DNA of 64,000 nt from Candidatus Micrarchaeota archaeon (GTDB taxonomy: Archaea; Micrarchaeota; Micrarchaeia; Norongarragalinales; JAPLXB01): positions 9,506-73,505 of the forward strand of contig JAPLXB010000022.1 of assembly GCA_026396285.1 (NCBI GenBank), given 5' to 3'. The notes below the pieces were generated by a model. The model had not been told where the DNA came from, did no database searches, and saw only the letters and a list, made by a program, of their open reading frames with translations. The translations under genes and the position numbers were made by a program. This document shows positions 38,388 through 58,718 of the stretch, in pieces (position 1 is the first letter of the stretch; the number at the start of each line of letters is the position of its first letter).

Positions 38388-38813
38388 TTGCTTCGGGTGG
38401 ATTGCTTGAGGGGACAGGCTGGTCTTGAATACGCGGCGATGGTGGCGATTGCAATCGCCATCATGGTTCCAATCTGGCTGTATGCGAGCGGCAGCATGGC
38501 TTCCGCAAAAGCGGAACTCCAATCGTCATACGCGAGGCAGCTCGTGAACAAGGTCTCAAACGCTGCTGACACCGTTTTCGTCCAAGGCGAGCCAGCCCAG
38601 TTGACGCTTTTTGTTGAATTTCCGGAAGGGCTGACTTCCGCGACCGTTGCCGGAAACGAAATTTCGTTCAGGCTTGTTACCGCGGCAGGCCCGACTGACG
38701 TTTACGCCGTCTCTCTTGCGAACCTCAGCGGCTCACTTTCAACGCGGCCGGGAAAGCACCGCGTCATAGTGAAGGCGTCTGGCGGGGCAGTCACGGTAAG
38801 CGAGGGTGATTGA
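38388..38813 (+). CDS. Class III (prepilin-type) signal peptide protein, pilin/FlaF-G-like
   Basis: 141 aa. The N-terminus ...LRGQAGLEYAAMVAIAIAIMV has a basic residue, G|Q, and E at +5 of a 20-aa hydrophobic helix. Confidence 0.55.
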   Translation: MLRVDCLRGQAGLEYAAMVAIAIAIMVPIWLYASGSMASAKAELQSSYARQLVNKVSNAADTVFVQGEPAQLTLFVEFPEGLTSATVAGNEISFRLVTAAGPTDVYAVSLANLSGSLSTRPGKHRVIVKASGGAVTVSEGD

Positions 38814-39206
38814 ATCCGCGCCCAGTCCTCCATTGAACTCCTCGCCGTAGTCGGCTTTTTGATAGCGATGTTCGCGGCTTTCACCGCAGTGAGCGACGCA
38901 AACAAGACATCCGCCCTTGAAAGGTCTGTTACAATGGACGCGAAACGCGTGTGCGACGCCGCCGCCGGTGAAATAAACACTGCCGAAAGCGTGGGGGACG
39001 GGTATTCCCATTCATTCCTCATCCCTGACTTCATTTTCGGGAGAGTCAATTTCTCCGTTCAACTTGTTCCCGAGACGCGGACCGTGGCGTGCTCGTGGAG
39101 CGGCGGCTTTTATGAAAGCCCGGTGCTTGCGGCGAATTTCACGGGCAACGTGCGCAAGGGAACAAACACGGTAACCAATTTCGCGGGAGTGGTTTCAGTT
39201 GGCTAG
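38814..39206 (+). CDS. Class III signal peptide protein (start codon unresolved)
   Basis: In frame directly after the TGA of the previous gene the sequence reads IRAQSSIELLAVVGFLIAMFAAFTAV, a prepilin-like N-terminus. No ATG/GTG precedes it. The first conventional start is the TTG at 38859, which would cut the hydrophobic helix. Confidence 0.35.
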   Translation: MRAQSSIELLAVVGFLIAMFAAFTAVSDANKTSALERSVTMDAKRVCDAAAGEINTAESVGDGYSHSFLIPDFIFGRVNFSVQLVPETRTVACSWSGGFYESPVLAANFTGNVRKGTNTVTNFAGVVSVG

Positions 39207-40317
39207 GGCGCAGGTTTTTGCAACAGATTTTGCCGCAAGCATCGTGATATTCTTTTCAGCGGTCTTGGTGGTTTCGCTGGCATGGAACGGTTTCCTGTCC
39301 GAATCAGCGGACGCTTCAACCCGCCACGCGATGCTCGTTTCGGCCCACTACGCCGCCGACGCCCTCGTGCAAACCCAGGGGGTGCCGGCCGCATGGAACG
39401 AGTCAACCGCCGTAGCAATTGGTTTGGCGGACGGCGAGCGCGTGCTTAACCTTTCGAAAATAATTTCCCTCCGGAAAATGGATTACGACGAGGCAAAGGC
39501 CATGCTGCGGCTCGGGCCATACCACTTCCGGCTGTCCATCACGGGAAAGAACGGCACGCTGCATTCCGGAATAATGCGGCCGAAAATCGCGCTTTTCGCA
39601 GTTGAAAAAACAGACCTCCTGCCGGTCGTGAACTCGTCGGGAATGCCGTGGGACTTTTACTACGGAAAGGAAGCGCCGGTTCCGGAAGGGCTTACTGCCG
39701 GCAAGGCGATAAGCGGCCCAAAGGCGGGCGTTTTCAACATGATGCTTGGAAACGGTTCCGCGTATTCCTTCATCGTCATAGAGGAACCGCGGCTCGCCCA
39801 AGCCGATGTCGATGCCGCTTCCCTTGAATCGTTCGTGCGACGCGGCGGCACCCTTTTACTTGAAGACGGCATCGGATGGGACGGCGAACTGCTGGTGGAG
39901 AATTACGGCATGCATGCAGTGGGTTTCGGGGAAAACCATGACGGGCCAGTTGTTTCCGGCGGGTATTTCCTTTCAAACGTTTCCCCCGGCGAATTAGTCT
40001 CCTTCGGTTCGTCGCAGTGGGGTTTGTTCCAGGCAGCGGGCGACTCGCCGATTTCAATGCACGTCGCGGACTCGGGCAACGCGTCACTCGCGCTGGCGGC
40101 GTCATGGAAGCACGGCTTTGGCACGATTTACTATCTTGCAGACGCTTCTGGTTCCGTTGGCGGAACGCCCCTCATCAACTCCCTGAACTTGGTCGGGGAA
40201 CCGCTGGAATACGGGCTTGAAGGAAACCCTTATGATGCTGCAGTGGTGACGCGCGCGGTGATAGTGCGGGGCGACTGGTCGGTTCCGGCAAATCTCGGCG
40301 TGGTGGTTTGGAAATGA
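39199..40317 (+). CDS. Class III signal peptide protein (372 aa)
   Basis: TTG start. (M)ARAQVFATDFAASIVIFFSAVLVV is a prepilin-like N-terminus. It overlaps its neighbours by 8 nt and 10 nt. Confidence 0.5.
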   Translation: MARAQVFATDFAASIVIFFSAVLVVSLAWNGFLSESADASTRHAMLVSAHYAADALVQTQGVPAAWNESTAVAIGLADGERVLNLSKIISLRKMDYDEAKAMLRLGPYHFRLSITGKNGTLHSGIMRPKIALFAVEKTDLLPVVNSSGMPWDFYYGKEAPVPEGLTAGKAISGPKAGVFNMMLGNGSAYSFIVIEEPRLAQADVDAASLESFVRRGGTLLLEDGIGWDGELLVENYGMHAVGFGENHDGPVVSGGYFLSNVSPGELVSFGSSQWGLFQAAGDSPISMHVADSGNASLALAASWKHGFGTIYYLADASGSVGGTPLINSLNLVGEPLEYGLEGNPYDAAVVTRAVIVRGDWSVPANLGVVVWK

Positions 40318-43300
40318 AAAGAATGTTTTTCCTCAGCCTGGATTCGCTGGTGGCGATAACCCTGCTGCTCGCCATTGTCCCGGCAATCGCTTTTTTTGAA
40401 AGCGCGTCCACGAACCAGGTGCTGCTTCAAAAGCAGTTGTACGTCCAGTCAGCGGACCTCGCCGACGTGATGTCCAAACTCAAGTTGGCTGACGTGGCAA
40501 CCGAACCAGTGGTTTCAAACGCGGTTGCCGCCGGCCTGATTGCCGAAAGCGACTTGAACAGGACCTTCCTTGAGGAACTCGTGGAGTTGTGGGCTTCGGG
40601 CACCGCCGGGAACGCGAGTCTGGCGCGCAACCTGACTGAAGGGATATTTTCCGGTTTTGTTTCCGGCAACCTGCGGTGGGCAGTCCTGTTGGACGGGGAC
40701 GAGATATTCAACTCATCCGGCGGAACAGGCTACCTTGTTGCTGCCGGGCGGAAAATAATATCGGGCCGGACGCGCAACGTTTCGGCCACGGGCTGCATTG
40801 CCAGCGCGGGCCTGCACTCCATTAAAAGCAAGTCTGCGGCCGCGTACTCGTTTTTCGGGGGTTTCGAGGGCGAAGGCAACCTCACGAAGGTAGTCAAGGG
40901 AATTCCTGATTCGTCCACGGTCAGCCTGATTCATCTCGAATTGTCCGCGGGGAACGCCTTCGAGCTGTCCGTCAACAACCATTCATGCGGCATTTTCAAC
41001 GCGACTCCAGGCAACCTCTCAGTCGACTCCTGGGAAATAACCGATGCCAACTGCACCGGCGCCATAGCCCCCGGCGAAGACAATTACTTTTACCTCAACT
41101 TCTCCGAAGCCCCTCTTGAAAAAAGCTACATCGGCGGCGGTTTCATAAAAGTAGTGTACGACACCAGCGAACTGAACCCGCCTTCCCCCAACGTTTTCCG
41201 CCACGACTTTCCAGGGATAAACGGCCTCATCAACTATTACTCCTCGTTCTATGTCCCGGGCAACGTGACTTCAATGAACCTCCGCCTCCACCTGTACAAC
41301 AATTACACCACATATGTAACAATAGGCAACGCAACGGTAATGAACTTTTCAGGCACCAACGAGTCCAGGTGGGTCAACGCCACCGACGCAAACCTTTCGG
41401 CCCTCCTGAACTATTCCCAAACCGGCTCGGCCACGATTCCGATACGAATAGGTGTGGAAGCTAACGTGACCAGCGGTAAGGTAAACGGGACCGCCGACGT
41501 CGTCCTCATAACCGATATTTCAGGGAGCATGGACTGGCAGATGAACAACAGCAACACCGGCACGCTAGTGAACAACTGCAGCGACCCCCGGCTGTACAGC
41601 TACACGACGAAGAGGATAAGCCTCGCAAAATGCCTTGACAAGAATTTCGTGGACCAAGTGCTCAGCCTGGAAGGCAACCGCGTCGCGCTGGTGGCATTCA
41701 ACAACAGCGTCGCGGCATACGAAAACCTGACTTCAAACGCGACCTACCTCGGCGGCATGATCAACAGGTACGCCGCAGTGGGCTCCACCTGCATCGCCTG
41801 CGCAATAAACAAGGCCTACGACCTCCTCGCCCAGCAAAGCACGGCAGGAAGGAAAAAATACATCGTGGTAATGAGCGACGGCGTCGCCAACCAGCGGGCC
41901 ACCCCCACGTGCTCGAACCTGAACGGCGTGAGCTGCGTCAACTCGGCGGCATTCGCGGTCGGAAACCTGGGAAACCGGATTGCGGCGTACAACCCCGCAT
42001 CGGACGACTGGGAGGCGCTGGAAACGAACTTCACGAGCACGTTCCGCGCCACGGCGGCCCTCAACTCGTCGTTCGCTTTCGCGGTAGGCGACTCGGGCAT
42101 AATACTCAAATGGGACGGGGCGAACTGGGCGAATGTCTCAAGCGCGTTCACCAACACTCTGCGCGGCGTCGCCATTTTCAACTCGTCCCTGGCGTTCGCG
42201 GTAGGCGACTCGGGCAGGATACTGAAATGGAACGGCACGACGTGGGCCAACGTTTCCAGCGGCGTGTCGGACAACCTGCGCGGCGTTTCGTTTGCGAACG
42301 CGTCCCTCGCTCTCGCAGTGGGCGACGGCGGGAGAATACTCAAGTGGAACGGCGCGTCATGGAGCGCGGACTCAAGCCCGACGACCAAGGATTACTACGG
42401 AGTGGATGCCCTCAACAACGCGCTCGCGTTTGCCGTCACTACGCGCAGCAGTTCGACCGCGGTGGTTGCGAAATGGAACGGCACGACATGGTCGTCCAAC
42501 TATTCGGCATCCCAGTCCCTGCGGGGCGTCGATGTCTTCAATAGTTCCCTTGCGTTCGCGGTTTCAACAAGCGGCAGGGTTTACCAGTGGTCAGGCGGCT
42601 CATGGTCATATACCACGCCGGCCTCGGATGAACTTGACTCGGTCAGCGTCTGCAACGCGTCGCGCGGCTGGGCCGCCGGCCAGCTCAACGGCCAATTATT
42701 GAAATGGGCTGGCTCGGCCTGGAGCACGGCGCAATACCCGCAATTCTCGTATGCGGGCGAATCGCCAACGGGCGTGGACTGCAGCGACGACGACTCCTGC
42801 TCGCTTTCGACGAGCATTCCGGTCAAGAACGCGAATTACAGCGCGTGCAGGGCGTTCAATTCAATCCAGAACCTCACCATCGACTCTATCGGCTTCGGCC
42901 CGGTCTCGTCCTGCCAGTTGGCGAACACCAGCCTTCGCTCGGTGGCGGACTGCGGAAACGGCACTTATTATTCAAGCGACAACGCCACGGAACTCGCGGG
43001 CGTCTACCGCCAGATAGCCGACAAGATACTGGTCCAGTCGACGATAACGCAGGTGCTGAACGTGACCGGAAACATCACGACGATACTCTATCCCGACTCC
43101 TACCTCGAAGCGGATTATTCGCCGGAAACCCAGCCGCCAGGATACCAGGAAATAACCGTGAACCTCGAAGCCGGGCCGTTCCAGTCGTGCAACGCGAGCT
43201 TCCTCGTGCCCCCCAAGATAAACGTGACCGAAGCGATGGCCACATCATATTCCGGCGTTTACTGGAGCGACAACGTTTCAATCAGGAACTCGCTGACTGC

Positions 43301-43877
43301 CGGGGAGTGGAAGAACCTCTTCTGGCTCGGAAACTACGGGAATTACACGCGCCTGGGCGACCCCTTCGTCATTCAGTTCCCGCCCTCGAACATCGCGGTG
43401 AACGAAACGAACCAAATTTACATCAAGACCGGGTATTCGCCGGCAAACTCGAGCCAGTACTGTTCCCAAGGCAACAAGCTGATTTATTCCGCCAGGATAA
43501 AGGCCGCGGTGCCCTACTCCCAGGTCCTCCCCAACTGCGGGGGCGGGGTCGTTCGCGTCTTTTACGACACCAACTACGACGGAGTCGCGGATTCCAGCGT
43601 TAATGTCACGGTGGGCTCGAACTCGTCGCCAGGATTCAATCCCGTTCCAAGGGACGTGTGGGAACTCCAGCCGGGCAGCAACGCGGTCGACGACGCTTTC
43701 CTGCGCCTTCTTTCCCTCCTCCGCCTCGTTTCAGGCAATTCGACTGCGCGGCCCGGGAGCGAGGAAAACCCCGTGAACTTCGCCCTCTCAGACCAGCTCA
43801 CTCCGGAGATAACCCTGACTACCGGAATACCTTACTTATGGGGACCGGTTCAAGTGGAGGTGATAACATGGGTGTGA
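40308..43877 (+). CDS. Large pilin-like protein with vWA domain and BNR/Ycf48-like beta-propeller repeats (1189 aa); candidate tip adhesin
   Basis: N-terminal MFFLSLDSLVAITLLLAIV hydrophobic anchor in prepilin style. A vWA MIDAS DVVLITDISGSMDW...VALVAFNN...VVMSDGVAN. At least 7 repeats of SSLAFAVGDSGRILKWNGTTWANVSS (SxDxGxTW-like). Many sequons. Confidence 0.65.
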   Translation: MEMKRMFFLSLDSLVAITLLLAIVPAIAFFESASTNQVLLQKQLYVQSADLADVMSKLKLADVATEPVVSNAVAAGLIAESDLNRTFLEELVELWASGTAGNASLARNLTEGIFSGFVSGNLRWAVLLDGDEIFNSSGGTGYLVAAGRKIISGRTRNVSATGCIASAGLHSIKSKSAAAYSFFGGFEGEGNLTKVVKGIPDSSTVSLIHLELSAGNAFELSVNNHSCGIFNATPGNLSVDSWEITDANCTGAIAPGEDNYFYLNFSEAPLEKSYIGGGFIKVVYDTSELNPPSPNVFRHDFPGINGLINYYSSFYVPGNVTSMNLRLHLYNNYTTYVTIGNATVMNFSGTNESRWVNATDANLSALLNYSQTGSATIPIRIGVEANVTSGKVNGTADVVLITDISGSMDWQMNNSNTGTLVNNCSDPRLYSYTTKRISLAKCLDKNFVDQVLSLEGNRVALVAFNNSVAAYENLTSNATYLGGMINRYAAVGSTCIACAINKAYDLLAQQSTAGRKKYIVVMSDGVANQRATPTCSNLNGVSCVNSAAFAVGNLGNRIAAYNPASDDWEALETNFTSTFRATAALNSSFAFAVGDSGIILKWDGANWANVSSAFTNTLRGVAIFNSSLAFAVGDSGRILKWNGTTWANVSSGVSDNLRGVSFANASLALAVGDGGRILKWNGASWSADSSPTTKDYYGVDALNNALAFAVTTRSSSTAVVAKWNGTTWSSNYSASQSLRGVDVFNSSLAFAVSTSGRVYQWSGGSWSYTTPASDELDSVSVCNASRGWAAGQLNGQLLKWAGSAWSTAQYPQFSYAGESPTGVDCSDDDSCSLSTSIPVKNANYSACRAFNSIQNLTIDSIGFGPVSSCQLANTSLRSVADCGNGTYYSSDNATELAGVYRQIADKILVQSTITQVLNVTGNITTILYPDSYLEADYSPETQPPGYQEITVNLEAGPFQSCNASFLVPPKINVTEAMATSYSGVYWSDNVSIRNSLTAGEWKNLFWLGNYGNYTRLGDPFVIQFPPSNIAVNETNQIYIKTGYSPANSSQYCSQGNKLIYSARIKAAVPYSQVLPNCGGGVVRVFYDTNYDGVADSSVNVTVGSNSSPGFNPVPRDVWELQPGSNAVDDAFLRLLSLLRLVSGNSTARPGSEENPVNFALSDQLTPEITLTTGIPYLWGPVQVEVITWV

Positions 43878-44812
43878 GGGGATTCCTTTACTCCATCGCG
43901 CTCCTGCTATTCATCATTCCAATAGTGTTTTTCATAAGCAACTACTTCGCCATCGCGTCCGCAAACGACTACGAGGCAACAATAGGCATCCGGGGCAGCG
44001 AATTCGCGTCGTTCGTCAATTCAATCTCATCGGACTTGCCGCGCGCCCTCCTCATAAGCGGCCGCAACTCTGTTGCTTCGGCGGTGTCCAGCGTTACCGG
44101 GACCGGCGCGCCGCTTGACGACGCGGCCCTGCGGCTCGAGGAACTGGCGCTTAACGGGACGCTGTACGGCCACGCCGCCATGAACGCTTCCCTCTCGCGG
44201 TGGGCGCAGCGCGTGCAGGAAATCGGGCGCGCCCGCGGGTTTGAAACGCGGATGGTCTTCGAATCGCTGAATGCCAGGCAGCTGGATTCGTTCAGCCTCG
44301 AGTTTTCAGCAACCGTTTCAATAAACATTAGCGACCGGGTCTCGAGCATGAACGTTTTCAGGACGCGGCATGAGACTGCACTGCTGCCAATAAACGGCTT
44401 TGAAGACCCGCTCTATGCGCTTGAAACAAACGGCATAATGCACCGCGTCATAAGCGAGGCCAACGAGACAGTCTATGGCGTAGCGGGAGTCGACCGCGCA
44501 ATAGCACAAAAGTATTACCTGCCTGCCGGCGATGGGGCAAGCTTCCTTGACCGCCTCGAGGGCGCGACCCAGGTTTCTGAAAAATACGCGAACCTTTCCC
44601 AACAGCCAATAGGGCTGGAGACTTTCGTGGACGTGCAGGAACTGCTCGACAACGGCCTTGAAATAAAGCAGGACCGGACTGTGGTGGACCACCTTTACTT
44701 CAACGAAACCGCCCCTCCAGGTTATGCGGTGAACGGCTCGCAATACCCCTTGTTCAGGATAGATGCGGAGCACGCCGCCCTATATGGCGTGAACGGCTCG
44801 CTCGCAGGCTGA
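43868..44812 (+). CDS. N-terminally anchored extracytoplasmic protein (314 aa), prepilin-like N-terminus
   Basis: The ATG overlaps the upstream stop (ATGGGTGTGA). MGVRGFLYSIALLLFIIPIVFFISNYFAIAS then a soluble domain. The longer ORF-track start at 43658 is judged a spurious extension. Confidence 0.45.
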   Translation: MGVRGFLYSIALLLFIIPIVFFISNYFAIASANDYEATIGIRGSEFASFVNSISSDLPRALLISGRNSVASAVSSVTGTGAPLDDAALRLEELALNGTLYGHAAMNASLSRWAQRVQEIGRARGFETRMVFESLNARQLDSFSLEFSATVSINISDRVSSMNVFRTRHETALLPINGFEDPLYALETNGIMHRVISEANETVYGVAGVDRAIAQKYYLPAGDGASFLDRLEGATQVSEKYANLSQQPIGLETFVDVQELLDNGLEIKQDRTVVDHLYFNETAPPGYAVNGSQYPLFRIDAEHAALYGVNGSLAG

Positions 44813-44845: not shown

Positions 44846-45559
44846 TTGATTGAAATGGCTGCTGACGAAAACATTGAGACAGTCATTGACCGCTTGGTCG
44901 ATTTCGTGAAATTAAAAGGCAGGGTCAGCGCGGTCGAGGCCGGGCGGGCGCTTGGCATGAGTTCCGGCCAAGTCGAGGGCATTGCCCGGCTGCTTGAGGA
45001 CAACGGGCTCGTACAAGTGCATTACACCCTTATTGGCACGGAACTCGCCGCGGTTGGAAGGGATTTGAAGAAAAAAGAGGGGGAAAAAAGCCGTGCAAAC
45101 GAGCCGGGCGCCGTGGAGGCGTACAAGGACTTCGAATCCTTCGTCAAGGAAAGCGAGGACATTTTCGAGTTCCTCAAGGAAGAGGTCTTGAAAAAAATGA
45201 CTGCCGCCGAGTCCCTGCTGGACCGGCTGGAAAAAGAGAAACTGGACGAAAACGACAAGACCGCGGTCAGGAAGGAACTCCGCCGGGTGACAAGCACCCT
45301 CAACAACTTCGAACCCACTCTCCAAAAAATCGTGCACGGGGAAAAGGAACTTAGGAAGCGCATAAGGGAAATCAGCAAGAGGACGGCCGCTGCCGAGAGA
45401 AGTAAACCCGGGATTTGGGACGGCATCAGGGACTTTGTTGCAAAATTTAAGCGCCGGAAGAAGGGGAAAATTCCCGCTCCAAGCGCTTCTCCGAAGTCGG
45501 AGAAGCGCAAAAAGCTTTTGGAACGACTCAGCCTTTCCCGCAAAAGGGTGCTGAAATGA
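44846..45559 (+). CDS. Cytoplasmic wHTH-like plus coiled-coil protein, translationally coupled to the filament ATPase
   Basis: 237 aa. The N-terminal roughly 70 aa (VIDRLVDFVKLKGRVSAVEAGRALGMSSGQVEGIARLLEDNGLVQV) looks like a winged helix. A charged coiled coil follows. Its stop overlaps the ATPase start (ATGA). Confidence 0.45.
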   Translation: MIEMAADENIETVIDRLVDFVKLKGRVSAVEAGRALGMSSGQVEGIARLLEDNGLVQVHYTLIGTELAAVGRDLKKKEGEKSRANEPGAVEAYKDFESFVKESEDIFEFLKEEVLKKMTAAESLLDRLEKEKLDENDKTAVRKELRRVTSTLNNFEPTLQKIVHGEKELRKRIREISKRTAAAERSKPGIWDGIRDFVAKFKRRKKGKIPAPSASPKSEKRKKLLERLSLSRKRVLK

Positions 45560-47058
45560 AAGTGCTTGCAAAATACGTCATCCAAAGCGAGAACGTGCCG
45601 GCAGAGGTTACCATCGCCCAGCGCGAAGAAGAGTACATAAACACCTACGAACTCAAGCACGCGAAGGTTATGGAGGCAACGAACGTCGTCCTTAATTTCC
45701 TGAAGGAGAAAATCATTGAAGGCGTCGACATCAGGATTTCCGAAATAATGGATCCGCGCGAGGCCGAGCGCGTAAAGGAAAAAATAATCCCAACGGCCCA
45801 CGAACTCGTCAGGAAGGAACTGCCGGGCGTGAACAGGGACGAGGAAGACATCCTAGTAGGGCGGCTTGTCCAGGAAATGCTCGGACTAGGCGAAATGGAA
45901 CTCCTCCTCGCAGACGACGAGCTTGAGGAGATAGTCGTCAATTCTTCAAAAGAGCCAATCTACGTTTATCACAAGAAGTTCGGCTGGCTCAAGACCAACG
46001 TATCAGTCACGTCAGAGGAGCAGATTCACAACTACGCTTCCATCATCGGGAGAAAAGTCGGGAAACAAATCACTAACCTCAACCCGCTCATGGACGCGCG
46101 GCTCCTCAGCGGAAGCAGGGTCAATGCCACGCTGTTCCCCATCTCCTCAAAGGGCAACGGTTTCACGATAAGAAAATTTGCGAAAGACCCGTGGACCATA
46201 ATCAACTTCATCAACCCCAAGATAAACACCCTCAACGCAGAAACCGCCGCCGTAATCTGGCAGGCGGTGCAGTACGAAATGAACATAATCGTTGGCGGCG
46301 GCACCGCTTCTGGAAAAACCTCTTTCCTAAACGCCATACTTGCATTCTGCCCGCCCAACCAGAGGATTGTCTCAATAGAGGACACGCGCGAACTCGTGCT
46401 CCCCGACTTCCTCCACTGGACCCCGCTCGTCACCAGGGAACCGAACCCGGAGGGCAAGGGCGGGGTGGAAATGCTCGACTTGATGATAAACTCGCTCCGC
46501 ATGCGGCCCGACCGGATAGTGCTGGGCGAAATCAGGCGGCAGCGCGACGCAGAAGTGTTGTTCGAGGCAATGCACACGGGCCACGCCGTATGCGGGACCC
46601 TTCACGCGGATGACGCGATGCAGGTCAAGTCGCGGCTCACGAGCCCGCCCATAAACCTGCCGGAGGAAATGCTGGGCGCCCTTCAACTCACCGCAGTCCA
46701 GTACCGCCAGAGGAGGACCGGCATCAGGAGGACGTATGAAATCGCCGAATTCATGCCCGAGGGGAAGACGATGGGCATAAACACCGTTTACAAGTGGGAC
46801 CCGAAGAGCGACAGGCTGGAAAAGGTCGGGGAGGGCCTGCGCCTCATCAGCGAGCTGTCAATGCACACTGGCATGAGCATGAAGGAGATGCGCGAGGATC
46901 TGGATGACAAGAAGGACGTCCTCAACTACATGAGCGAACACCAGATTGCCTCGGTCAACGAGGTTGGAAAGGTCGTCGCGTCCTATTACCGCGACGGGGG
47001 ACGCGTGACAGAAGGAGTCCGCAAGAAAACGCCGCCCCAGAAACTCTTCGGCCGGTGA
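45556..47058 (+). CDS. Type IV filament/secretion ATPase, FlaI/TadA/GspE family (module 1)
   Basis: 500 aa. Walker A GGGTASGKTS. An Asp box. Walker B VLGEIR-type. A His box (MHTGHAV). The N-terminal domain resembles archaeal FlaI/PilB. Confidence 0.85.
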   Translation: MKVLAKYVIQSENVPAEVTIAQREEEYINTYELKHAKVMEATNVVLNFLKEKIIEGVDIRISEIMDPREAERVKEKIIPTAHELVRKELPGVNRDEEDILVGRLVQEMLGLGEMELLLADDELEEIVVNSSKEPIYVYHKKFGWLKTNVSVTSEEQIHNYASIIGRKVGKQITNLNPLMDARLLSGSRVNATLFPISSKGNGFTIRKFAKDPWTIINFINPKINTLNAETAAVIWQAVQYEMNIIVGGGTASGKTSFLNAILAFCPPNQRIVSIEDTRELVLPDFLHWTPLVTREPNPEGKGGVEMLDLMINSLRMRPDRIVLGEIRRQRDAEVLFEAMHTGHAVCGTLHADDAMQVKSRLTSPPINLPEEMLGALQLTAVQYRQRRTGIRRTYEIAEFMPEGKTMGINTVYKWDPKSDRLEKVGEGLRLISELSMHTGMSMKEMREDLDDKKDVLNYMSEHQIASVNEVGKVVASYYRDGGRVTEGVRKKTPPQKLFGR

Positions 47059-47061: not shown

Positions 47062-47937
47062 ATGATGAAGCCAGCGGTTCCATTCAGCCTCATTCCCCCC
47101 AGGGCGTTGTTCGCCGCGGGAAAAAAATACGCGGCGCTCGGCATCCAATTGACACGCGCCTTTTCCGAACTGAAGACTAACCTCGCCCAGGCGGAAATGG
47201 AAATTGCGGCAGCGGAGTACGCCGCGGCTTCCCTTGTTTCAGCGGCGCTCAACACCGCATTCATCCTCATCCTCATACTGTTCTTCGGCTACCTCGCGTC
47301 GGCAAACGTCCTGACGGCGGCACTGGCCCTTGCACTGGTCACCGGCGCAAGCTCGTTCCTGACCGCCGTATACTACCCGAAAATAATCGCCCTCCGCCGC
47401 AAAAGAAAACTGGAGGACAACCTTGTTCCGGCGGTGCGCCAGCTCGTTATAGAACTCAAGTCGGGGGTGCCGTTGTTCGAGGCCATGACGAGCGTTTGCG
47501 ACGACTACGGCGAAGTGTCGGAAGAGTTCAAAAAAATAGTCAAGAAAATAAACGCCGGCGAGGCCGAAATAGACGTGCTCGGCGACGCGAGCCGCCGACT
47601 GCCGTCAGTGCAGTTCCAGAAAGTCATCTGGCAGATATCAAACGCCCTGAAAGTCGGGTCGGACGTGAGCAACGCGCTTGAAGCAATACTCGAGGACTTG
47701 ACCGCCGAGAAAATAAACGAAATCAAGAGATACTCCCAGGAGCTTTCGCCATGGACAATGGTTTACATGATGACTGCAGTCATACTCCCCTCGCTCGGAA
47801 TCACTCTCGGGATAGTCATACTGTCGTTCCTGAGCGTCTCGGTTCCCAGGATGATATTCGCGGTGGCGATCGTCTTCCTCGTCATCTTCCAGTTGTTTTT
47901 CATGAACTTCCTTGGAACGCGACGGCCCGCGATATGA
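47062..47937 (+). CDS. TadB/TadC(FlaJ)-like polytopic membrane platform protein, single T2SS-F domain
   Basis: 291 aa. A cytoplasmic helical domain between TM1 and TM2 (VPAVRQLVIELKSGVPLFEAM...) is typical of the GspF/TadC fold. Confidence 0.65.
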   Translation: MMKPAVPFSLIPPRALFAAGKKYAALGIQLTRAFSELKTNLAQAEMEIAAAEYAAASLVSAALNTAFILILILFFGYLASANVLTAALALALVTGASSFLTAVYYPKIIALRRKRKLEDNLVPAVRQLVIELKSGVPLFEAMTSVCDDYGEVSEEFKKIVKKINAGEAEIDVLGDASRRLPSVQFQKVIWQISNALKVGSDVSNALEAILEDLTAEKINEIKRYSQELSPWTMVYMMTAVILPSLGITLGIVILSFLSVSVPRMIFAVAIVFLVIFQLFFMNFLGTRRPAI

Positions 47938-48990
47938 GTGATTGAATTGTTTGAAAAAATATACTACCAAACTGCCGAAATATTCCCGCCTTCCGCGGTG
48001 GAGAAAACCAGGGAGCTCCTGCAGCAGGGCGGAATAGAAAAAATAAGCCCGAAGGTGTATCTTGGACTCGGCACATACCTTTCAACCGCGCTCGCCCTCA
48101 TTGCCTTCTTCCTGGCCCCCATTTTCGTTCCCGGCCAGCATCCTGCCGCATACGTCGGAATAGCCGTGGCCGTCCAACTCCTCGCCGGCATACTCTTTTA
48201 CCTGAACCTGACAATGACCGCGGAAAACAGGGCTGAAAAAATAGAGGCAATGCTTCCCGAAATGCTCCAGATAATTTCCGCAAACATACGGGCGGGAATG
48301 ACCCTGGAAAACGCGGTCTGGTCCTCAGCAAGGGAAGAATTCGGGCCGCTGAGGGACGAGATAAAGAAGGTTTCGGCAGACGCGTACCGCGGAATACCCA
48401 TACAAGATGGAATGCTGAACATGAGCAAGAGAATACGGTCAACCCTCGCCGAAAGGGCGATAAAACTCATAGTGGAAGGGATTGCAAAAGGGGGGGAAAT
48501 GACCCGCCTACTTGACCGCGTGGCATGGGACCTCAAAAGCGCCCAGACGCTGCGCAAGGAAATAACGACGGCCACCCTGACTTACTCGCTTTTCATTGTT
48601 TTCGCCGCAGTCATCGTAAGCCCCCTCCTGTTCTCCGTCTCCACCTACTATTCGGAAATGAATGAAAAAATAGCGGAAAAAACCACTGCCTCGCCAGAAC
48701 TCAACATGTCCAAATCAGTGAGGGGCGGCCCGATGACCTATTCCGCCATCCCCATCATGGGCTTCGGGCAACGGCCAAAAGACATGATAACCTCGAACGA
48801 AATAAAGCTCTTCGCGTACGCGGCAATAATAATCACAACCGCTTTCAGCGCCCTCCTGCTCGGAGTGATTCGCTACGGGAAGCCCAGCAAGGGCCTGAAA
48901 TTCCTCGTCTTGTTCGTCGTCCTCGGGCTCGCCGTGTTTTCGCTCGCCCACGATTTCCTGACAGCCGCCTTCTCAAGCATCATGCGATAA
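47938..48990 (+). CDS. TadB/TadC(FlaJ)-like membrane platform protein, second single-domain paralogue
   Basis: 350 aa. A GTG start lies immediately after the TGA of the previous gene. Same T2SS-F-like layout (LPEMLQIISANIRAGMTLENAV...). Confidence 0.65.
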   Translation: MIELFEKIYYQTAEIFPPSAVEKTRELLQQGGIEKISPKVYLGLGTYLSTALALIAFFLAPIFVPGQHPAAYVGIAVAVQLLAGILFYLNLTMTAENRAEKIEAMLPEMLQIISANIRAGMTLENAVWSSAREEFGPLRDEIKKVSADAYRGIPIQDGMLNMSKRIRSTLAERAIKLIVEGIAKGGEMTRLLDRVAWDLKSAQTLRKEITTATLTYSLFIVFAAVIVSPLLFSVSTYYSEMNEKIAEKTTASPELNMSKSVRGGPMTYSAIPIMGFGQRPKDMITSNEIKLFAYAAIIITTAFSALLLGVIRYGKPSKGLKFLVLFVVLGLAVFSLAHDFLTAAFSSIMR

Positions 48991-49063: not shown

Positions 49064-49861
49064 ATGGCAAAGAAAAAGCAAACGCCACTGCACAGGGCCC
49101 GCGCAAGCCGCGCCGCGCCGGCAGAACACGAACGCCGCGAAAAGACTCCCGCCGAAGCCGCTCCTGCAGGGGAGTCGCCGAAGGTCAAGTCGGGGATTCC
49201 GGGTTTGGACAGGCTCATTGGCGGCGGCTTCGAGAGGGAAAGCGTGGTGCTCGTCACCGGCGACGCGGGAAGCGGGAAAAGCACATTGGCCATGCAGTTC
49301 CTGTGCAACGGCGCCAGCCAATACGACGAGCCGGGCATACTCATAACGTTCGAGGAACGCCGCGAGGACATAATCAAGCACATGAAGTCCTACGGCTGGG
49401 ACATCGAGGCATTGGAAAAGGAGAAGAAAATAAAGATACTTGAATACCCCCCGCACGAAGTGGAGCGCTTCATTTCAGAAGGCGAAATAATCCGCGACCT
49501 CATATCAGACCTCAAGGCGAAACGCATGGTGATAGACTCCATGACTTCCTTCGCGCTCGTTTTCGACAACGAGTACAAGATGAGGCTAGGGGTGCTGAAG
49601 GCGATTGATTCCCTGAAAAAATGGGGGTGCACTGCGCTCCTGATTTCCGAAGGAAGCGTGACCGAACAAGGCGAGGTCAGGGACCGTTTCGGCATAGAAT
49701 ACCTCGTCGACGGCACGATATACCTGTATAACAAGCGCGTGCGCGACTACCGCCAGAAACTCGTTGAAATCGTGGAACTCAAGGGCGTCAAACACGACAA
49801 CGCAATCCACCAGCTCGTCTTCGGCAGGAAGGGAATAAGCGTAGAGGAAAGATCCGCATGA
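49064..49861 (+). CDS. KaiC/FlaH-like RecA-superfamily ATPase
   Basis: 265 aa. GIPGLDRLIGGGFERESVVLVTGDAGSGKSTLAMQFL (KaiC-type Walker A) and Walker B MVIDSMT. A Lys/Arg/Ala-rich N-terminal tail. A TATA-like element sits 23 nt upstream of the ATG. Confidence 0.7.
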   Translation: MAKKKQTPLHRARASRAAPAEHERREKTPAEAAPAGESPKVKSGIPGLDRLIGGGFERESVVLVTGDAGSGKSTLAMQFLCNGASQYDEPGILITFEERREDIIKHMKSYGWDIEALEKEKKIKILEYPPHEVERFISEGEIIRDLISDLKAKRMVIDSMTSFALVFDNEYKMRLGVLKAIDSLKKWGCTALLISEGSVTEQGEVRDRFGIEYLVDGTIYLYNKRVRDYRQKLVEIVELKGVKHDNAIHQLVFGRKGISVEERSA

Positions 49862-50958
49862 AGGCGCAGACAGCGGTCGAACTCCTAGTCATCCTCGCGG
49901 CCGGCCTCATTGTGATAGGCATACTCTTCGTCTCCAGTTACGAGCGCCTCGCGGGCTCCCAGGCTTCGCTCTCGGTTTCGCAGGCCCAGGCGGCCGCAAA
50001 CGACTTGGCCAACGCGGCGGACACGGTGTGGTTCGAGGGCGCCGGCGCGAAGAAAAACGTTTACATCGAACTGCCGAACGCAATAAACTACTCGCTGGTT
50101 TCCGGAAACACCGTGCTGTTCAGGGTCGCCGTCCCATCCGGCCTCACCGACGCGGTCGCGAAATCAACTGCGCCCCTGTTTGGCTCAGTGACCGCGAAAC
50201 CGGGGGCCCAACTCGTGAGCGTCTACGCCACCGAGTCCGCCGTGGTAATCGGCATGCAGTCCCTCGCGGCAGACCCCGCACTCCTACTCACCCAGGCATT
50301 CGCGTCCAACGCCACTCAAAACGTGCAAAAAACATTCAACGCCTCCAACAACGGAAACTCTTCGCTCGACGTTACCGCCGCCCTAGCATGGAGCAGCGGC
50401 GGCGTGAATGTCTCGTTCGCCAACCCCTCCGACTCCTACTTCTCTCTCGCGCCCGGCGCCAGCCGCTCGATAACCCTGAACGAGGCCGTTGGCGCCAACG
50501 TCATGGGCTCGTTTTCGGGAAGCGTCCTGCTGAACGCAAGCAACGGCGAGGAGGCCACAGTGTACGTGGTCGTGGAAGTGTCGCCGCCTTACTGCCCATC
50601 GTGCCCCGGCTGCCCGCCCTGCGGAGGCGGCGGGAACGAGACGGTCTCCTGGTTCGAGATAACCACGTGCCCCGATGCCTCGTGCACGAGGGAACAGCTG
50701 GTCTTCGACGCCGGCAACGACTCGCAGGTCGACATATTCAGCACCGGGTCGTGGGACAGGAACTCCCTCCTCACGATAAACGTGTCCTACCCCAACGGCA
50801 CGAGCGTGCCCGGCTACCCGAAAGACGTCAGCACGACCTTCATCGGAAGCTTTTCCGACTACTGGGTCTTCGCCCCAGGCGCGCCAAACGGAACATACAC
50901 CGTGCGCGTAAACCAAAGCCCGTACTCCAATTACACGGCGTTCAACGTGACATGCTGA
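49858..50958 (+). CDS. Class III signal peptide protein (366 aa) with C-terminal Cys/Pro cluster
   Basis: MKAQTAVELLVILAAGLIVIGILFV (K-A|Q, E at +5). The ATG overlaps the kaiC-like stop. C-terminal PPYCPSCPGCPPCGGGGNE. Confidence 0.55.
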   Translation: MKAQTAVELLVILAAGLIVIGILFVSSYERLAGSQASLSVSQAQAAANDLANAADTVWFEGAGAKKNVYIELPNAINYSLVSGNTVLFRVAVPSGLTDAVAKSTAPLFGSVTAKPGAQLVSVYATESAVVIGMQSLAADPALLLTQAFASNATQNVQKTFNASNNGNSSLDVTAALAWSSGGVNVSFANPSDSYFSLAPGASRSITLNEAVGANVMGSFSGSVLLNASNGEEATVYVVVEVSPPYCPSCPGCPPCGGGGNETVSWFEITTCPDASCTREQLVFDAGNDSQVDIFSTGSWDRNSLLTINVSYPNGTSVPGYPKDVSTTFIGSFSDYWVFAPGAPNGTYTVRVNQSPYSNYTAFNVTC

Positions 50959-50968
50959 GGAATTTGAA

Positions 50969-53128
50969 ATGAAAAACCGCACCATCCTCGTCTTCGCAGC
51001 CATTCTCGCGCTCCAAGCCTCCGCGGCGATATCGGTGGCGATGGTCTCCCCACCCGCCAACCAGACCACCAACCTCACCCAGGGAAACTTCTTCAACATG
51101 ACCGTAAACGTAACCTGTTCCGGCACCCCGTGCGGAAACGTCAGCATGGTCTCGCAGCACAACTCGAGCGGCGAAATCGGCGGCGGCGAAAACGGGCCCC
51201 TCGCCATATCCGCGCCCACCATCGTCAACGACTACGCTGCAGTCACCGCCAACGCCTTTGCGGGCGCGATGACCATCCAGGTGGACTCGGCGGCCGCGTT
51301 CTCCGCTGGAAACGAGATACTCGTGACGCAGGTCCAGAACGCGAGCGCAGGGGTTGCGGGCGCGCACGAGTTCGCCACCCTCCTCGGAATATTGGGCAAC
51401 ACGCTCTACCTTACAATCCCCCTCGCCAACAGTTACTACACTTCCTCGCAAAACTCCACCTCTGCCACCGCCGCCCAAGCAGTCCGCGTTCCCCACTACA
51501 CCACCGTCAACGTCACCGCCACAGGGTCAATAATCGCCAAGCCATGGGACGGCTACACCGGAGGCGTCATCGCGTTCAAGGCCAACTCAACCGTTACCGT
51601 AACCGGCTCGATAAACGCGACCGGCACAGGATTCAGGGGCGGCAGCGGAGTCTCTGGCGCCCAGACAATCACTTTCGCATACCAAGGCGAGTCATTCACC
51701 GGCACCGGCGCCTCATCCAACCTCTCCAACAAAGGCGGCGGCGGGGGCGGCTTCAACAACTTCGAAGTATTCTCCGGAATGAGCGGCGCATCTGGCGGAG
51801 GAGGCGGCTACTCTTCAACAGGCACAAACGGTTACCAATCGCCCGAGGGCCAGCCCGGCGGCATCAACGGCTCGACATATGGCCTCCCCGCGCTTTCGCT
51901 CCTCATGCTCGGGTCTGGCGGGGGCGGCGGAGGCACTGACAACAACGGCAGCATCGGCAACGGCACCGACGGCGCCACAGGAGGAGGAATAATTTACGTT
52001 TCAGCGGACAAGGTGGTCGTGACCGGCAGCGTACTCTCCAACGGCGCCAACAGCCAAGGAAGCACCTCCACGTACGCCGGCTCAGGAGGCGCAGGCGCAG
52101 GCGGCTCAACCCGCCTGAGGGCAAACAACCTCACAATCGGAAACCGTTTGGTCAACGCGAGCGGCGGAACCGGCGGCTGCAGCGCCTCGCCCTACTGCGG
52201 AGGCAACGGCTCCACTGGAAGGATAAGGCTGGATTACGCCGCCCTCAGCGGTTCTTCGGGGCAACCGTCCGGCTACAACGGGTCCGCTCCCCTCCCGCCG
52301 GGTTACGTAAACATATCAAACGCTTCCGGGAACTACCCGTTCTACACCACCTCGCCCCAGCCGCAGTACTGCACGCTTTCCGCCGGCCAGTCATGCCTAG
52401 TGACCTGGCAAGTCAATACAACCGCCCAAGTCGCGACAATCTACCTACTCCGCGGCTACGCGCGGAGCACCACCCAATCCAACGCCTCAACCCCCTCCAC
52501 GGTAGTGGTTTACGCCAGGCCAGGGCCCAGGGGCGTCGCCACCTCCAAAAGCGCCTACACTGTCTGCGGCAAGCTCTACTTCCGCATCTCCGCCTTCGGC
52601 CCGTCCGGAAACCCGGTGAACGCGCCCATAAACTACAAGATAATCGACGCCGCAGCCGCGGTCCAACAAGACCGGAACGTGACAACGCCCGGCGGTTCCT
52701 ACTATGGAACATGTCCGCTCTCAAACCCGCTGGCGCGCGGCGAATGGACCATAAAAGCGATGAGTGCATTCACACGCGGCCTCGGCTCGTTCATAGCCGG
52801 CGCAGGCAACGCCGAGCCGTGGAGGACTGACCTCGCGCTAGACGGCAACAAAGTCAAGTACCGGCGCGGCGAAAACCTCGCCGCAACCGCCACAGTCTAT
52901 TCAATGGACGGCCTCGGACTCGAAAGCCTATTGGCCGCAAACCGGCTGAAGATGTTCATCGACTCGACGGACGTCACCGCCACCGCCTCCGACCTGGGCC
53001 AAGGCAGTTACTCGTTCACCTACAACACATCCTCGCTGGGCGGGGCAGTCCACTCGGTGCGCGCCTTCGCAAACACGACCGCGGGAGTCCAAGTCACAAC
53101 AGTGAAGTCGTTCTATCTCTTCGGGTGA
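50969..53128 (+). CDS. Secreted Gly-rich repeat protein (Sec-type signal peptide)
   Basis: 719 aa. MKNRTILVFAAILALQASAAISVA signal. Long GGxGGxG tracts and N-x-S/T sequons. No class III motif. Confidence 0.5.
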   Translation: MKNRTILVFAAILALQASAAISVAMVSPPANQTTNLTQGNFFNMTVNVTCSGTPCGNVSMVSQHNSSGEIGGGENGPLAISAPTIVNDYAAVTANAFAGAMTIQVDSAAAFSAGNEILVTQVQNASAGVAGAHEFATLLGILGNTLYLTIPLANSYYTSSQNSTSATAAQAVRVPHYTTVNVTATGSIIAKPWDGYTGGVIAFKANSTVTVTGSINATGTGFRGGSGVSGAQTITFAYQGESFTGTGASSNLSNKGGGGGGFNNFEVFSGMSGASGGGGGYSSTGTNGYQSPEGQPGGINGSTYGLPALSLLMLGSGGGGGGTDNNGSIGNGTDGATGGGIIYVSADKVVVTGSVLSNGANSQGSTSTYAGSGGAGAGGSTRLRANNLTIGNRLVNASGGTGGCSASPYCGGNGSTGRIRLDYAALSGSSGQPSGYNGSAPLPPGYVNISNASGNYPFYTTSPQPQYCTLSAGQSCLVTWQVNTTAQVATIYLLRGYARSTTQSNASTPSTVVVYARPGPRGVATSKSAYTVCGKLYFRISAFGPSGNPVNAPINYKIIDAAAAVQQDRNVTTPGGSYYGTCPLSNPLARGEWTIKAMSAFTRGLGSFIAGAGNAEPWRTDLALDGNKVKYRRGENLAATATVYSMDGLGLESLLAANRLKMFIDSTDVTATASDLGQGSYSFTYNTSSLGGAVHSVRAFANTTAGVQVTTVKSFYLFG

Positions 53129-53133: not shown

Positions 53134-53532
53134 GTGAAGGCTCAAGTGGGAATGGACTTGCTCATCGCTTCAATAATACTATTCCTGGTGTTTCTATCCG
53201 TCTTCAGTTTCTACTCGCTGCAATTCCAGGCATCCGAAGAGACAAAACAGCGGGCCAGCGCCTCCCGCATCGCCGAACTAATCGCATGGAACGCCAACGG
53301 CATACTCCAATCAATGAACGGCACCACGACAGTAATCAGAATCCCGCCGCTCCTCGCAACCGGCGACAACTACTCCATACTGTTCGTCACGCGCCAAGTC
53401 ATCGTTTCCTGGAAAAACAAGTCTGAATCGAGGCCGCTGCTCACCCGCGCGGTATCCGGCGCCGGTGCGGCCGCGCCCGGAAAAAACGTTTCAATAACTA
53501 ATGCCGACGGGGGAATCGCCTTTGCATCCTAG
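53134..53532 (+). CDS. Class III signal peptide protein (132 aa)
   Basis: MKAQVGMDLLIASIILFLVFLSVF (K-A|Q, Asp at +5). Confidence 0.5.
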   Translation: MKAQVGMDLLIASIILFLVFLSVFSFYSLQFQASEETKQRASASRIAELIAWNANGILQSMNGTTTVIRIPPLLATGDNYSILFVTRQVIVSWKNKSESRPLLTRAVSGAGAAAPGKNVSITNADGGIAFAS

Positions 53533-54094
53533 GACGCCAAACCAAGCGGAACAACTGGCCCGCCCGACAGCCACCGGCCGGCAATCAAGGGGGCAGTTGT
53601 TCAGCATAGACATACTTGTGGCAGTCACAATCGCGCTATTCCTCTTCATAACAGCCACAACCTTGTCCACGAGAGTGATGAACGTGCTTGGAATATCGGA
53701 ACAGGAGATTGAACTCAATGCCGCGGCAGAAGCCGCCGCCGCCCAGCTTGCGGCATCACCGGGCAACCCCCTCAACTGGGACGCATTGTCATTCAGCGAC
53801 GCGTCAGTGAACTCAATCGGCCTCGCAGAGTCAAGGAACGTGCTTGCCCCCGCCAAGGTAGGCGCCTTTTTCGCCCTCGCCTCAAACCAGACCGCCCTGC
53901 CGCTCGTCAAGAAAATGCTAGGCGTCAGCCGCCCTGGCTACGGTTTTTCAGTCAGAATCTACAACCAGACCGGCTCGCTGGTAAACGGCTTCAGCACTGG
54001 CGCGGGAACAGGAAAGCCCGCGACCGTCGCCGAACGAATCGGAGTCCTCAACGGGTCCCTCGTGAGACTCAGCGTAGGTGTTTGGATTGAATGA
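53522..54094 (+). CDS. Class III signal peptide protein (start uncertain, TTG at 53522)
   Basis: ...SRGQLFSIDILVAVTIALFLFITATTL (R-G|Q, Asp at +5). It overlaps the upstream gene. The ORF-track ATG at 53501 gives an atypically long leader. Confidence 0.4.
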   Translation: MHPRTPNQAEQLARPTATGRQSRGQLFSIDILVAVTIALFLFITATTLSTRVMNVLGISEQEIELNAAAEAAAAQLAASPGNPLNWDALSFSDASVNSIGLAESRNVLAPAKVGAFFALASNQTALPLVKKMLGVSRPGYGFSVRIYNQTGSLVNGFSTGAGTGKPATVAERIGVLNGSLVRLSVGVWIE

Positions 54095-54518
54095 AAACCG
54101 GAGAAAGGGGTTTTTCTTCACGCTGGACGCGCTGCTTGCAGTAGCGTTTTCAATCGCCATATTCATCCTCGTAGTCAAAACGCTTGAAACCGCCCAAACA
54201 ACCGCCTCTGCCGACGTCGGCCTCGCGAGACTGGGCCAGGACCTGCTCGCCGGCATGGAAAAAAACGGCGCACTGGCTGAAGCCGTGCTGACCTCCTCCG
54301 GCGCCATCCTATCCGCCTCAACAGGAGTGCTTCCACCGGACATGTGCGGAAAAATAACCGTGAAAAAAAGCCCGGGCAACGCAGTCATCCTCGCGAACAG
54401 CCCCTCCTGCCGGTGCACGGAACGCAGGGTCGCGGCCTCCCGAAGCTTCGCCACCGCCGCAACCGGTTTTGACGAGTACGTTGCCTCAATAGAATTGTGC
54501 AGGAGGAAAAACACATGA
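54078..54518 (+). CDS. Class III signal peptide protein (146 aa)
   Basis: MFGLNENRRKGFFFTLDALLAVAFSIAIFILVV (K-G|F, Asp at +5). Confidence 0.5.
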   Translation: MFGLNENRRKGFFFTLDALLAVAFSIAIFILVVKTLETAQTTASADVGLARLGQDLLAGMEKNGALAEAVLTSSGAILSASTGVLPPDMCGKITVKKSPGNAVILANSPSCRCTERRVAASRSFATAATGFDEYVASIELCRRKNT

Positions 54519-55372: not shown

Positions 55373-55410
55373 ATATATTAAGGGAACGACTAATCAACGC
55401 GGGGACTTGA

Positions 55411-58661: not shown

Positions 58662-58718
58662 AAGCCGGCTTGAAAGAAATTGCGCTGCAAAAACTTCGCA
58701 AAAAAAAGGTCTTCAACA

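Follow-up and report, generated by a model that had tools for sequence, protein, structure and literature searches.

What does a protein of 1187 amino acids do when its gene lies between two pilin-like genes in the pilus operon of an archaeon? The question is raised by a stretch of 64,000 nucleotides of DNA (hereafter the window) from a Candidatus Micrarchaeota archaeon (contig JAPLXB010000022.1, positions 9,506 to 73,505), in which an open reading frame (ORF) runs from 40308 to 43877 on the + strand, as the original prediction made from the DNA had it. The ORF is real, and encodes a surface protein of this Micrarchaeota (DPANN) archaeon. Its product is 100% identical over its full length to a protein in the NCBI database from a Candidatus Micrarchaeota metagenome-assembled genome (MAG), where the annotation is 'VWA domain-containing protein' and nothing further. 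On balance we lean towards the view that it is a large adhesive subunit of minor-pilin-like character, i.e. a tip adhesin, of an Epd/Tad-like type IV pilus that is found throughout DPANN.

The first in-frame start codon of the ORF is the TTG at 40308, which would give the 1189 amino acids originally proposed. The ATG at 40314 is the likelier start, because it and the stop codon of the upstream pilin-like gene (40315-40317) overlap as ATGA, and because the resulting product is the one with full-length identity to the NCBI protein. The coding sequence is then 40314..43877 (+), ending with the TGA at 43875-43877, and its product has 1187 amino acids. The overlaps with both neighbours that had been noted are present; at the 3′ end the stop codon falls within a 10 nt overlap with the downstream gene, whose ATG is at 43868. 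NCBI uses the same starts for the flanking genes, the products of which (MCX6767408.1 and MCX6767410.1, the latter being the downstream one) are both annotated as 'hypothetical'.

The protein contains a vWA domain with a complete MIDAS (metal ion-dependent adhesion site), as had been predicted. Residues 395-551 score above the Pfam cutoffs for both VWA_2 (36.5 bits, cutoff 27) and VWA (26.5 bits, cutoff 23.8). The MIDAS comprises D401-x-S403-x-S405, T492 and D522, and all of these are invariant in two alignments, one of 43 close relatives and the other of 17 diverse relatives, making 60 relatives together. A Pfam VWA domain was found in 16 of the 17 diverse relatives. An AlphaFold2 model of the target was built on the alignment of the 43 close relatives, with a mean pLDDT of 85.2. 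In this model strands and helices alternate over residues 394-521 and again over 835-909 as in the Rossmann-like vWA fold, with pLDDT values of ~87-94. The N-terminal part of the domain (residues 394-525, 41493..41888, +) comprises beta1 to beta4 and carries the metal site, with D401-S405 encoded at 41514-41528, T492 at 41787-41789 and D522 at 41877-41879. The C-terminal part (residues 835-910, 42816..43043, +) provides alpha, beta5, alpha, beta6 and alpha in that order, and includes an invariant GFG at residues 860-862. By profile, the nearest vWA relatives of solved structure are pilus or fimbrial adhesins, i.e. Mfa5 (E 7.7e-8), a pilus adhesin of group B Streptococcus (GBS; PDB 3tw0, E 3e-4) and PilB of S. 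sanguinis (E 6.7e-3). Within the propeller-bearing clade the pairwise identity is highest in the vWA (52-56%, vs 35-43% elsewhere); the lowest values are 36% for the propeller and 35% for the helical region near the N-terminus.

The two parts of the vWA domain are separated by a complete beta-propeller. The model has vWA strands 1-4 at residues 394-521, the propeller at 536-805, and the last two vWA strands with their helices at 835-909. We set the limits of the propeller at residues 541-822 (41934..42779, +). It comprises seven blades of ~39 amino acids, and has Cys-rich necks on either side. On this evidence the propeller is nested within the vWA, in the loop that follows beta4 and the MIDAS residue D522, rather than appended to it. 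This topology is assigned because AlphaFold2 places the halves of the vWA on both sides of the propeller, and a PDB profile search agrees independently, in that the one vWA of Mfa5, a fimbrial tip protein, is aligned with both residues 433-529 and residues 835-901 of the target. In integrin alpha subunits a vWA I-domain is inserted into a propeller. The target has the reverse arrangement, with a whole propeller placed in a loop of a vWA. The multi-blade propeller of at least seven repeats that had been proposed is thus upheld in the number of its blades, while it lies inside the vWA and not separate from it, and the SxDxGxTW-like motif given for the repeats is not found. The possibility that the gene is an artefact in which two ORFs have been fused was rejected, since its architecture recurs in >30 relatives of full length and since the propeller sits between the halves of a single vWA fold.

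The best Foldseek matches of the propeller are to Ycf48, with E 1e-13 and a TM-score of 0.70 on the target. A PDB profile search also matches Ycf48 (E 6e-7). The identity is only 14-18%. Ycf48/HCF136 is thus the best match for the repeats by both structure and profile, at the level of the fold only; its context as an assembly factor of photosystem II (PSII) is unrelated. The blades have the motif W-[DNSA]-G-x-x-W, present in six copies together with one degenerate blade. A strict BNR repeat or Asp-box was rejected, as the target has zero matches to S-x-D-x-G-x-T-W or to relaxed forms of it. None of the Pfam families BNR, PSII_BNR (PF14870) and Kelch matched the target; the term 'BNR' is valid at the level of the fold only and 'Kelch' is unsupported; PSII_BNR does appear in the precomputed annotation of several homologs. 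A relationship with BNR-like repeats in the 1986-amino acid protein encoded at 19853 had also been suggested. No similarity between that protein and the propeller was detectable (best E in a single comparison 0.064), and homology was rejected; that ORF has Big_1/Invasin_D3 matches.

In the DNA, blades 2-4 are covered by a 117-nt tandem repeat (42061..42353, +; 2.5 copies, 76% matches), which points to recent intragenic duplication of blades, or to their homogenisation by concerted evolution. We also note that five of the blades, out of seven, open with an N-x-S sequon that occupies an equivalent place in the structure (residues 584, 623, 662, 743 and 781). There may be a ring of N-glycans on one face or the rim of the propeller.

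How widespread is this architecture, and how constant? A search of protein databases gave 129 relatives, of which 120 were listed. About 45 of those listed span the whole query, at 30-41% identity except for one at 74%; the others match only ~45% of it. Three parts are constant among the relatives, namely an N-terminal module of ~365-430 amino acids, the vWA core, and a C-terminal module of ~300-330 amino acids. In the target the N-terminal module occupies residues 31-390 (40404..41483, +). It begins with a helix at 35-55 that runs on from the membrane helix (residues 9-29 in the AlphaFold2 model) and leads into a helical bundle extending to residue 112; this is followed by a beta-rich region at 121-382, and the module contains the invariant motifs FGGFxGxGN and FYVPG. 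The C-terminal module (residues 911-1187, 43044..43874, +) is beta-rich, is modelled over residues 923-1186, and carries the motifs TSYSxxxWT and LGDPF.

The variation is found in the loops of the vWA. Three of them accept inserts, after residues 423, 509 and ~526 of the target, and some relatives carry none. At the first position one relative has an FG-GAP insert of 307 amino acids. The second accommodates a CUB domain, a beta-galactosidase-type jelly-roll, and unassigned inserts of up to 609 amino acids. At the third is either the propeller (330-355 amino acids) or a Cys-rich loop of 36-70 amino acids, which is the baseline state. The corresponding Pfam matches in the relatives are FG-GAP_3 (E 7.7e-34), CUB and BetaGal_ABD2. 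More distant relatives that have the same N-terminal module also carry CARDB, Laminin_G_3 and DUF2341, found by direct scan, and MAM, taken from precomputed annotation. What appears to be new here, judged from sequence and modelling, is a DPANN-wide family with two conserved modules and three insertion hot-spots in its vWA and, in the clade of the target, a whole propeller of seven blades lodged beside the MIDAS.

Out of 1.84 billion, a profile of the N-terminal module alone picked out 862 cluster representatives with E <= 0.001 (464 with E <= 1e-30). The module is N-terminal in the best 150 of the 862, and the lengths of the proteins range from <300 to 2640 amino acids. Those shorter than 300 are probably truncated, and apparently complete proteins begin at ~830 amino acids. 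When GTDB was scanned with one genome for each species, at least 449 stretches of DNA were found to encode the family. The best 80 of these are nearly all from Micrarchaeota, Aenigmatarchaeota, Woese-, Pace- and Nanoarchaeota, and Altiarchaeota, and on the basis of these matches the family is DPANN-wide. A few of the 80 bear odd labels suggestive of mis-binning. We note that the same gene cassette also occurs on contigs labelled Candidatus Kaiserbacteria (a bacterium; MFMA01000035.1), Methanosarcinales and Euryarchaeota. These are probably mis-binned MAGs, and not occurrences outside DPANN.

Where is the protein located? Its single hydrophobic segment is N-terminal. It has 18 cysteines, and 53 N-x-S/T sequons compared with 18.6 +/- 3.7 in shuffled sequences. 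The excess of sequons and the single N-terminal hydrophobic segment lead us to conclude that the protein is oriented N-in/C-out with an extracellular body, and is probably heavily N-glycosylated. Such a protein could also be a stand-alone type II membrane adhesin, merely co-transcribed with the pilus genes, making direct contact with other cells or with matrix. The single helix, the heavy load of sequons, the many cysteines and the adhesion-type modules would all fit this, and DPANN genomes hold many large surface proteins (PMC5498576), such as the 1986-amino acid ORF in the window. The arrangement of the neighbouring genes makes this rather improbable, as we now describe.

The gene lies in a pilus operon, as had been claimed. 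This type IV pilus-like operon encodes class III pilins, an ATPase of the T2SSE family, two T2SSF proteins and a KaiC-like ATPase, and its genes overlap or abut. Upstream are pilin 1 (38388..38813, +), which has the canonical class III sequence RG|QAGLEY and a probable start at TTG 38406 (giving MRG|QAGLEY) and not at 38388, and pilin 2 (38814..39206, +), also of class III, with (I)RA|QSSIELL. These small pilins have Gln at +1 and Glu at +5. They are followed by a gene that we term g3 (39199..40317, +), encoding a pilin-like protein of 372 amino acids beginning MARA|QVFATDF with a weak match to DUF7287, the stop codon of which overlaps the ATG of the target. Immediately downstream of the target is g5 (43868..44812, +), encoding a 314-amino acid pilin-like protein that begins MGVRG|FLYSIALLLFI and lacks the acidic residue. 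Across the loci examined all five proteins of this cassette have class-III-like N-termini. The gene order pilin 1-pilin 2-g3-vWA-g5 is identical in all 83 fetched loci where the genes were seen, and it was found as well in phylum-level checks of four loci, from Micr-, Aenigm-, Woese- and Altiarchaeota. Of the loci, 32 extend for 17 kb or more; all of these have g5, 31 have one or more small pilins, and 30 have the ATPase with both T2SSF genes. The gene keeps its place between two pilin-like genes from one DPANN phylum to another, and its start and stop codons overlap with theirs, which is hard to explain for a stand-alone adhesin that has no physical or assembly link to the pilus. Furthermore, the vWA protein and g3 share an N-terminal motif in register, with Phe at +3 and Asp at +6, and this is more than a membrane anchor needs.

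The remainder of the operon provides the assembly machinery. A protein with coiled-coil and helix-turn-helix-like character (44846-45559, +), assigned to no family, is followed by the assembly ATPase of the T2SSE family, which is FlaI/TadA-like (45556..47058, +), and by two separate T2SSF (TadB/TadC-like) platform genes (47062-47937 and 47938-48990, +). A KaiC/FlaH-like ATPase (49064..49861, +) has a KaiC family match. An archaellum, which the KaiC/FlaH-like gene and FlaI-like ATPase might bring to mind, was rejected; there is no Arch_flagellin match among the genes scanned, and the FlaI score is 291 bits against a cutoff of 550.

Does the protein enter the pilus, or is it an anchor at its base? 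Residues 1-30 (40314..40403, +) consist of a leader MKR followed by the hydrophobic helix FFLSLDSLVAITLLLAIVPAIAFF, with Asp10 inside the helix. In the vWA family as a whole the N-terminus has the consensus [KR]-[GA]|x-x-F-[ST]-x-[DE]-A, which resembles that of class III signal peptides. Of 76 distinct N-termini, 59 have Gly at -1 and 10 have Ala, i.e. 69 of 76 (91%), and Lys or Arg is found at -2 in 72. The acidic residue six positions after the Gly or Ala was part of the pattern by which the 76 were selected, so that its constancy in that set is not an independent observation. In the 43-sequence alignment D10 is kept in at least 90%. A conserved acidic residue buried within the helix is more than a generic membrane anchor would need.

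A number of observations weigh against the incorporation of the target into a pilus as a minor pilin. The target itself has Lys-Arg followed by Met at -1, where Gly or Ala would be expected, ahead of its hydrophobic helix of 20 residues. It and its 74%-identical relative are the sole two cases of Met at this position among the 76 N-termini, and Met at -1 is not a canonical cleavage site for substrates of PibD, FlaK or EppA. The acidic residue of the vWA family is at +6, and not at the classical +5. Searches of Pfam and NCBIfam with the target gave no match to the TadE/TadG, PilY1 or pilin families, and no pilin was found among the Foldseek matches for a model of the isolated N-terminal module, a model of low confidence (pLDDT 58.9). 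That model gave weak matches to sugar-binding jelly-rolls (GH2/BcsB; E ~2e-4, low TM-score), which we take as a hint only. Lastly, a gene for an A24 prepilin peptidase was found neither among the ORFs of the window that were scanned nor in four related neighbourhoods. The prepilin-like N-terminus of the original prediction is supported for the family as class-III-like, by its consensus and the conserved D10, while the Met at -1 makes it questionable for the target itself.

The protein might instead be a membrane-anchored accessory of the pilus with an uncleaved helix, acting as a base platform, stator or envelope anchor in the manner of FlaF/FlaG in the archaellum, with the vWA and propeller binding the S-layer or envelope of the cell itself. 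We regard this as a less probable explanation. The Met at -1 makes cleavage of the target doubtful, and no globular pilin fold was detected. The N-terminal module is modelled with confidence only as part of the whole protein (pLDDT 85-93, vs 58.9 when modelled alone on a 17-sequence alignment), which suggests a compact body, as opposed to a pilin stalk joined by a linker. The older idea that TadG serves to anchor the pilus in the membrane is also cited by Makarova et al. (2016). Against this, TadG was later detected in preparations of pilus fibres, and CpaL has been modelled at the tip (PMC12607857). Gly or Ala at -1 in 91% of the family, preceded by Lys or Arg, does not suit an uncleaved anchor, and a conserved buried Asp is typical of contacts between pilins. 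Nor would a protein that binds the envelope of its own cell be expected to exchange very different ligand-binding modules between lineages, as this family does.

If the protein is indeed a minor-pilin-like tip adhesin, its assembly and function can be envisaged as follows. The basic leader and hydrophobic helix would insert it N-in/C-out, placing ~1150 N-glycosylated residues outside the membrane. The helix, in which a Phe is conserved and an Asp is buried, would associate with g3 and g5 to form a priming complex on the platform of the ATPase and TadB-TadC. The small Q+1/E+5 pilins would then polymerise below the priming complex, so that it would come to lie at the pilus tip. A position within the filament's body is unlikely because the subunit is too large. 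At the tip the metal site of the vWA MIDAS might capture an acidic or glycan ligand, acting together with the propeller inserted ~15 residues past D522. As cultivated DPANN are episymbiotic, the ligand would most plausibly lie on a cell surface, that of a host or partner. The vWA would be a fixed scaffold, with specificity set by the inserts, since other lineages replace the propeller by other binding modules.

All cultivated DPANN live attached to host cells, and to our knowledge the molecules that recognise and hold those hosts are essentially unknown. An anonymous 'VWA domain-containing protein' thus becomes a concrete candidate for host attachment in DPANN, and swappable binding modules could explain host specificity. 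We put forward, as a tentative proposal, that the family is a conserved device for host recognition in DPANN, a pilus-tip subunit with a constant vWA/MIDAS scaffold and lineage-specific modules that decide which host surface is bound, and that it may be the archaeal counterpart, possibly even the ancestor, of TadG/CpaL. If this is true then the type of insert could predict symbiont-host pairs from metagenomes. It would also extend to archaea the principle of modular pilins and vWA tip adhesins that is established in bacterial Tad, type IVa and Gram-positive pili. In the literature that we searched, the coverage of which is incomplete, we found no paper on DPANN that brings type IV pili together with a vWA adhesin.

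With which known systems should the protein be compared? By analogy, it looks functionally most like TadG/CpaL and PilB; by sequence it is a member of neither the PilY1 nor the TadG family. CpaL/TadG combines a pilin-like module with a vWA that is split by a beta-rich insert, and is predicted to form a tripartite complex at the tip with two minor pilins (PMC12607857). Like TadG of A. actinomycetemcomitans and CpaL of Caulobacter, the target is large, with an N-terminal hydrophobic helix, a candidate prepilin-peptidase site, and a full-MIDAS vWA that has a beta-rich insert. In both cases the gene is beside two others encoding minor pilin-like proteins, in a system with separate genes for TadB/TadC-type platform proteins and with G|xxxxE[YF] pilins. 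The target differs in having no match to TadE (PF07811) or Tad (PF13400) in Pfam/NCBIfam at E <= 0.1, in having its acidic residue at +6, and in its extra conserved N-terminal (~360 amino acids) and C-terminal (~280 amino acids) modules. Its insert is a seven-bladed propeller after beta4, not an insert in an early loop, and the protein is archaeal and rich in N-glycosylation sites. Homology between TadG/CpaL and the target is shown for the generic vWA only.

S. sanguinis PilB (PDB 7B7P) is an adhesin in which a pilin module is joined to a vWA with arms flanking the MIDAS, and has been modelled as a minor subunit at the tip (PMC8179133). It resembles the target in combining a class III N-terminus (class-III-like in the family of the target) with a vWA that has additional elements by the MIDAS, and it belongs to the modular pilins that have swappable effector modules; the profile match is the weak one given above. 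PilB has a canonical pilin fold of ~180 amino acids linked to the vWA, whereas no pilin fold was detected in the target, where the vWA is placed between two modules. The arms of PilB are small compared with the whole propeller of the target, and the bacterial motif IPR012902 is absent from the latter.

The analogy with PilC/PilY1 that had been drawn originally is sound in that a vWA and a propeller are combined in a large protein; it is weaker than that with TadG/CpaL and S. sanguinis PilB. PilY1/PilC is likewise a large tip-associated adhesin with vWA and beta-propeller, which works with minor pilins that prime assembly. PilY1 is however not a pilin and has a Sec signal, and its C-terminal PilY1-type propeller (IPR008707) docks on the minor pilins, while the propeller of the target is Ycf48-like and lies within the vWA. 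The target has no match to Pfam PilY1 or Neisseria_PilC. Mfa5 of P. gingivalis, RrgA of S. pneumoniae and GBS104 also place a MIDAS-bearing vWA at the tip of a pilus, and have arms inserted close to the metal site, but their pili are sortase-dependent or of type V, with an unrelated chemistry of assembly.

Among archaeal systems the closest is the Clade 1 (Epd-type) type IV pilus of Methanococci and Thermococci, in which large DUF2341 proteins have been proposed to lie at the tip by analogy with PilY (PMC4858521). The two have in common an ATPase, two TadC components, small Q+1/E+5 pilins, several minor pilin-like proteins of class III and a large adhesin-like protein, and DUF2341 is the variable module of some DPANN members of our family. 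A search with a DUF2341-bearing member gave only DPANN-labelled relatives, so that the DUF2341 proteins of Methanococci and Thermococci share a domain with the family, and membership of it is not supported; none of their proteins is among the named relatives. In the survey of Makarova et al. (2016) vWA proteins figure only as cytoplasmic regulators of the ArnB type, and coverage of DPANN was limited to a few nanoarchaea in which the pilins were not identified (PMC4858521).

Could the machine serve for export, rather than as a pilus? T4P-like machines can act as secretion systems, and the target might be a substrate or a pseudopilus component of a process like type II secretion, one that pushes it or a bound cargo through the S-layer. 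The window contains a second T4P-like locus that could be the true pilus. No evidence was found for cargo genes, and the pilins of the operon are Epd/Flp-like Q+1/E+5 proteins, of the type associated with real pili (Makarova et al. 2016). We consider this explanation very improbable; a role in a pseudopilus would in any case still put the target at the tip, and would overlap with its proposed function as a tip adhesin.

The second, separate T4P-like locus lies at 53501-60345 (+). It encodes a 197-amino acid DUF7287-like protein, a 291-amino acid ORF, a T2SSE ATPase of 770 amino acids (with a weak match to PilB3_C), two T2SSF proteins, and a 178-amino acid protein with a Pfam Class_IIIsignal match. 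The cultured Micrarchaeote Mia14 also has two T4P loci, with one FlaK-like prepilin peptidase, and one of its loci has been assigned to the Clade 1 group (PMC5498576).

Some further features of the operon and of its relatives are of interest. Pilin 2 has no ATG, GTG or TTG start; it begins with ATC at 38814 immediately after the TGA of pilin 1, in the same frame. It could be expressed from the ATC, by coupling, or by readthrough. Downstream of the KaiC/FlaH-like gene is a class III protein of 366 amino acids (49858-50958, +), with the canonical sequence KA|QTAVELL, a CPSCPGCPPCGGGG stretch and no Pfam match. Homologs of it were found in 19 of 83 related loci, mostly overlapping with the match to pilin 1. 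It is followed, in the region 49858-53128 (+), by a secreted-looking protein of 719 amino acids that is rich in Gly, Ser and Thr and in sequons, and that also has no Pfam match. In the Altiarchaeota locus the gene directly upstream of the cassette (5363-8659 of that locus) encodes a fusion of an AglB/STT3 oligosaccharyltransferase with F5_F8_type_C domains, which fits a link between N-glycosylation and the sequon-rich pilus proteins. In the Aenigmarchaeota locus an ATPase of the ParA/MinD family is placed between g5 and the T4P ATPase (14279-15022 of that locus), echoing the FleN/MinD component in the model of the Clade 1 archaeal T4P (Makarova et al. 2016).

Elsewhere in the window there is a cluster of genes for large surface-type proteins. 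These encode a Beta_helix/NosD-like protein (12198-14072, +), a Big_7 protein (17385-19667, -) and the Big_1/Invasin_D3 protein of 1986 amino acids (19853-25813, +), which has S-x-DG-x-NW-like motifs in its C-terminal region. The archaeal origin of the window is evident from a complete archaeal rRNA operon (2803-8582, -) with a tRNA at 6704-6776. The match to the large subunit rRNA extends over 3649 nt compared with 2987 nt for the model, and that to the small subunit rRNA over 1611 nt compared with 1478 nt. These lengths suggest that both rRNA genes carry insertions or introns.

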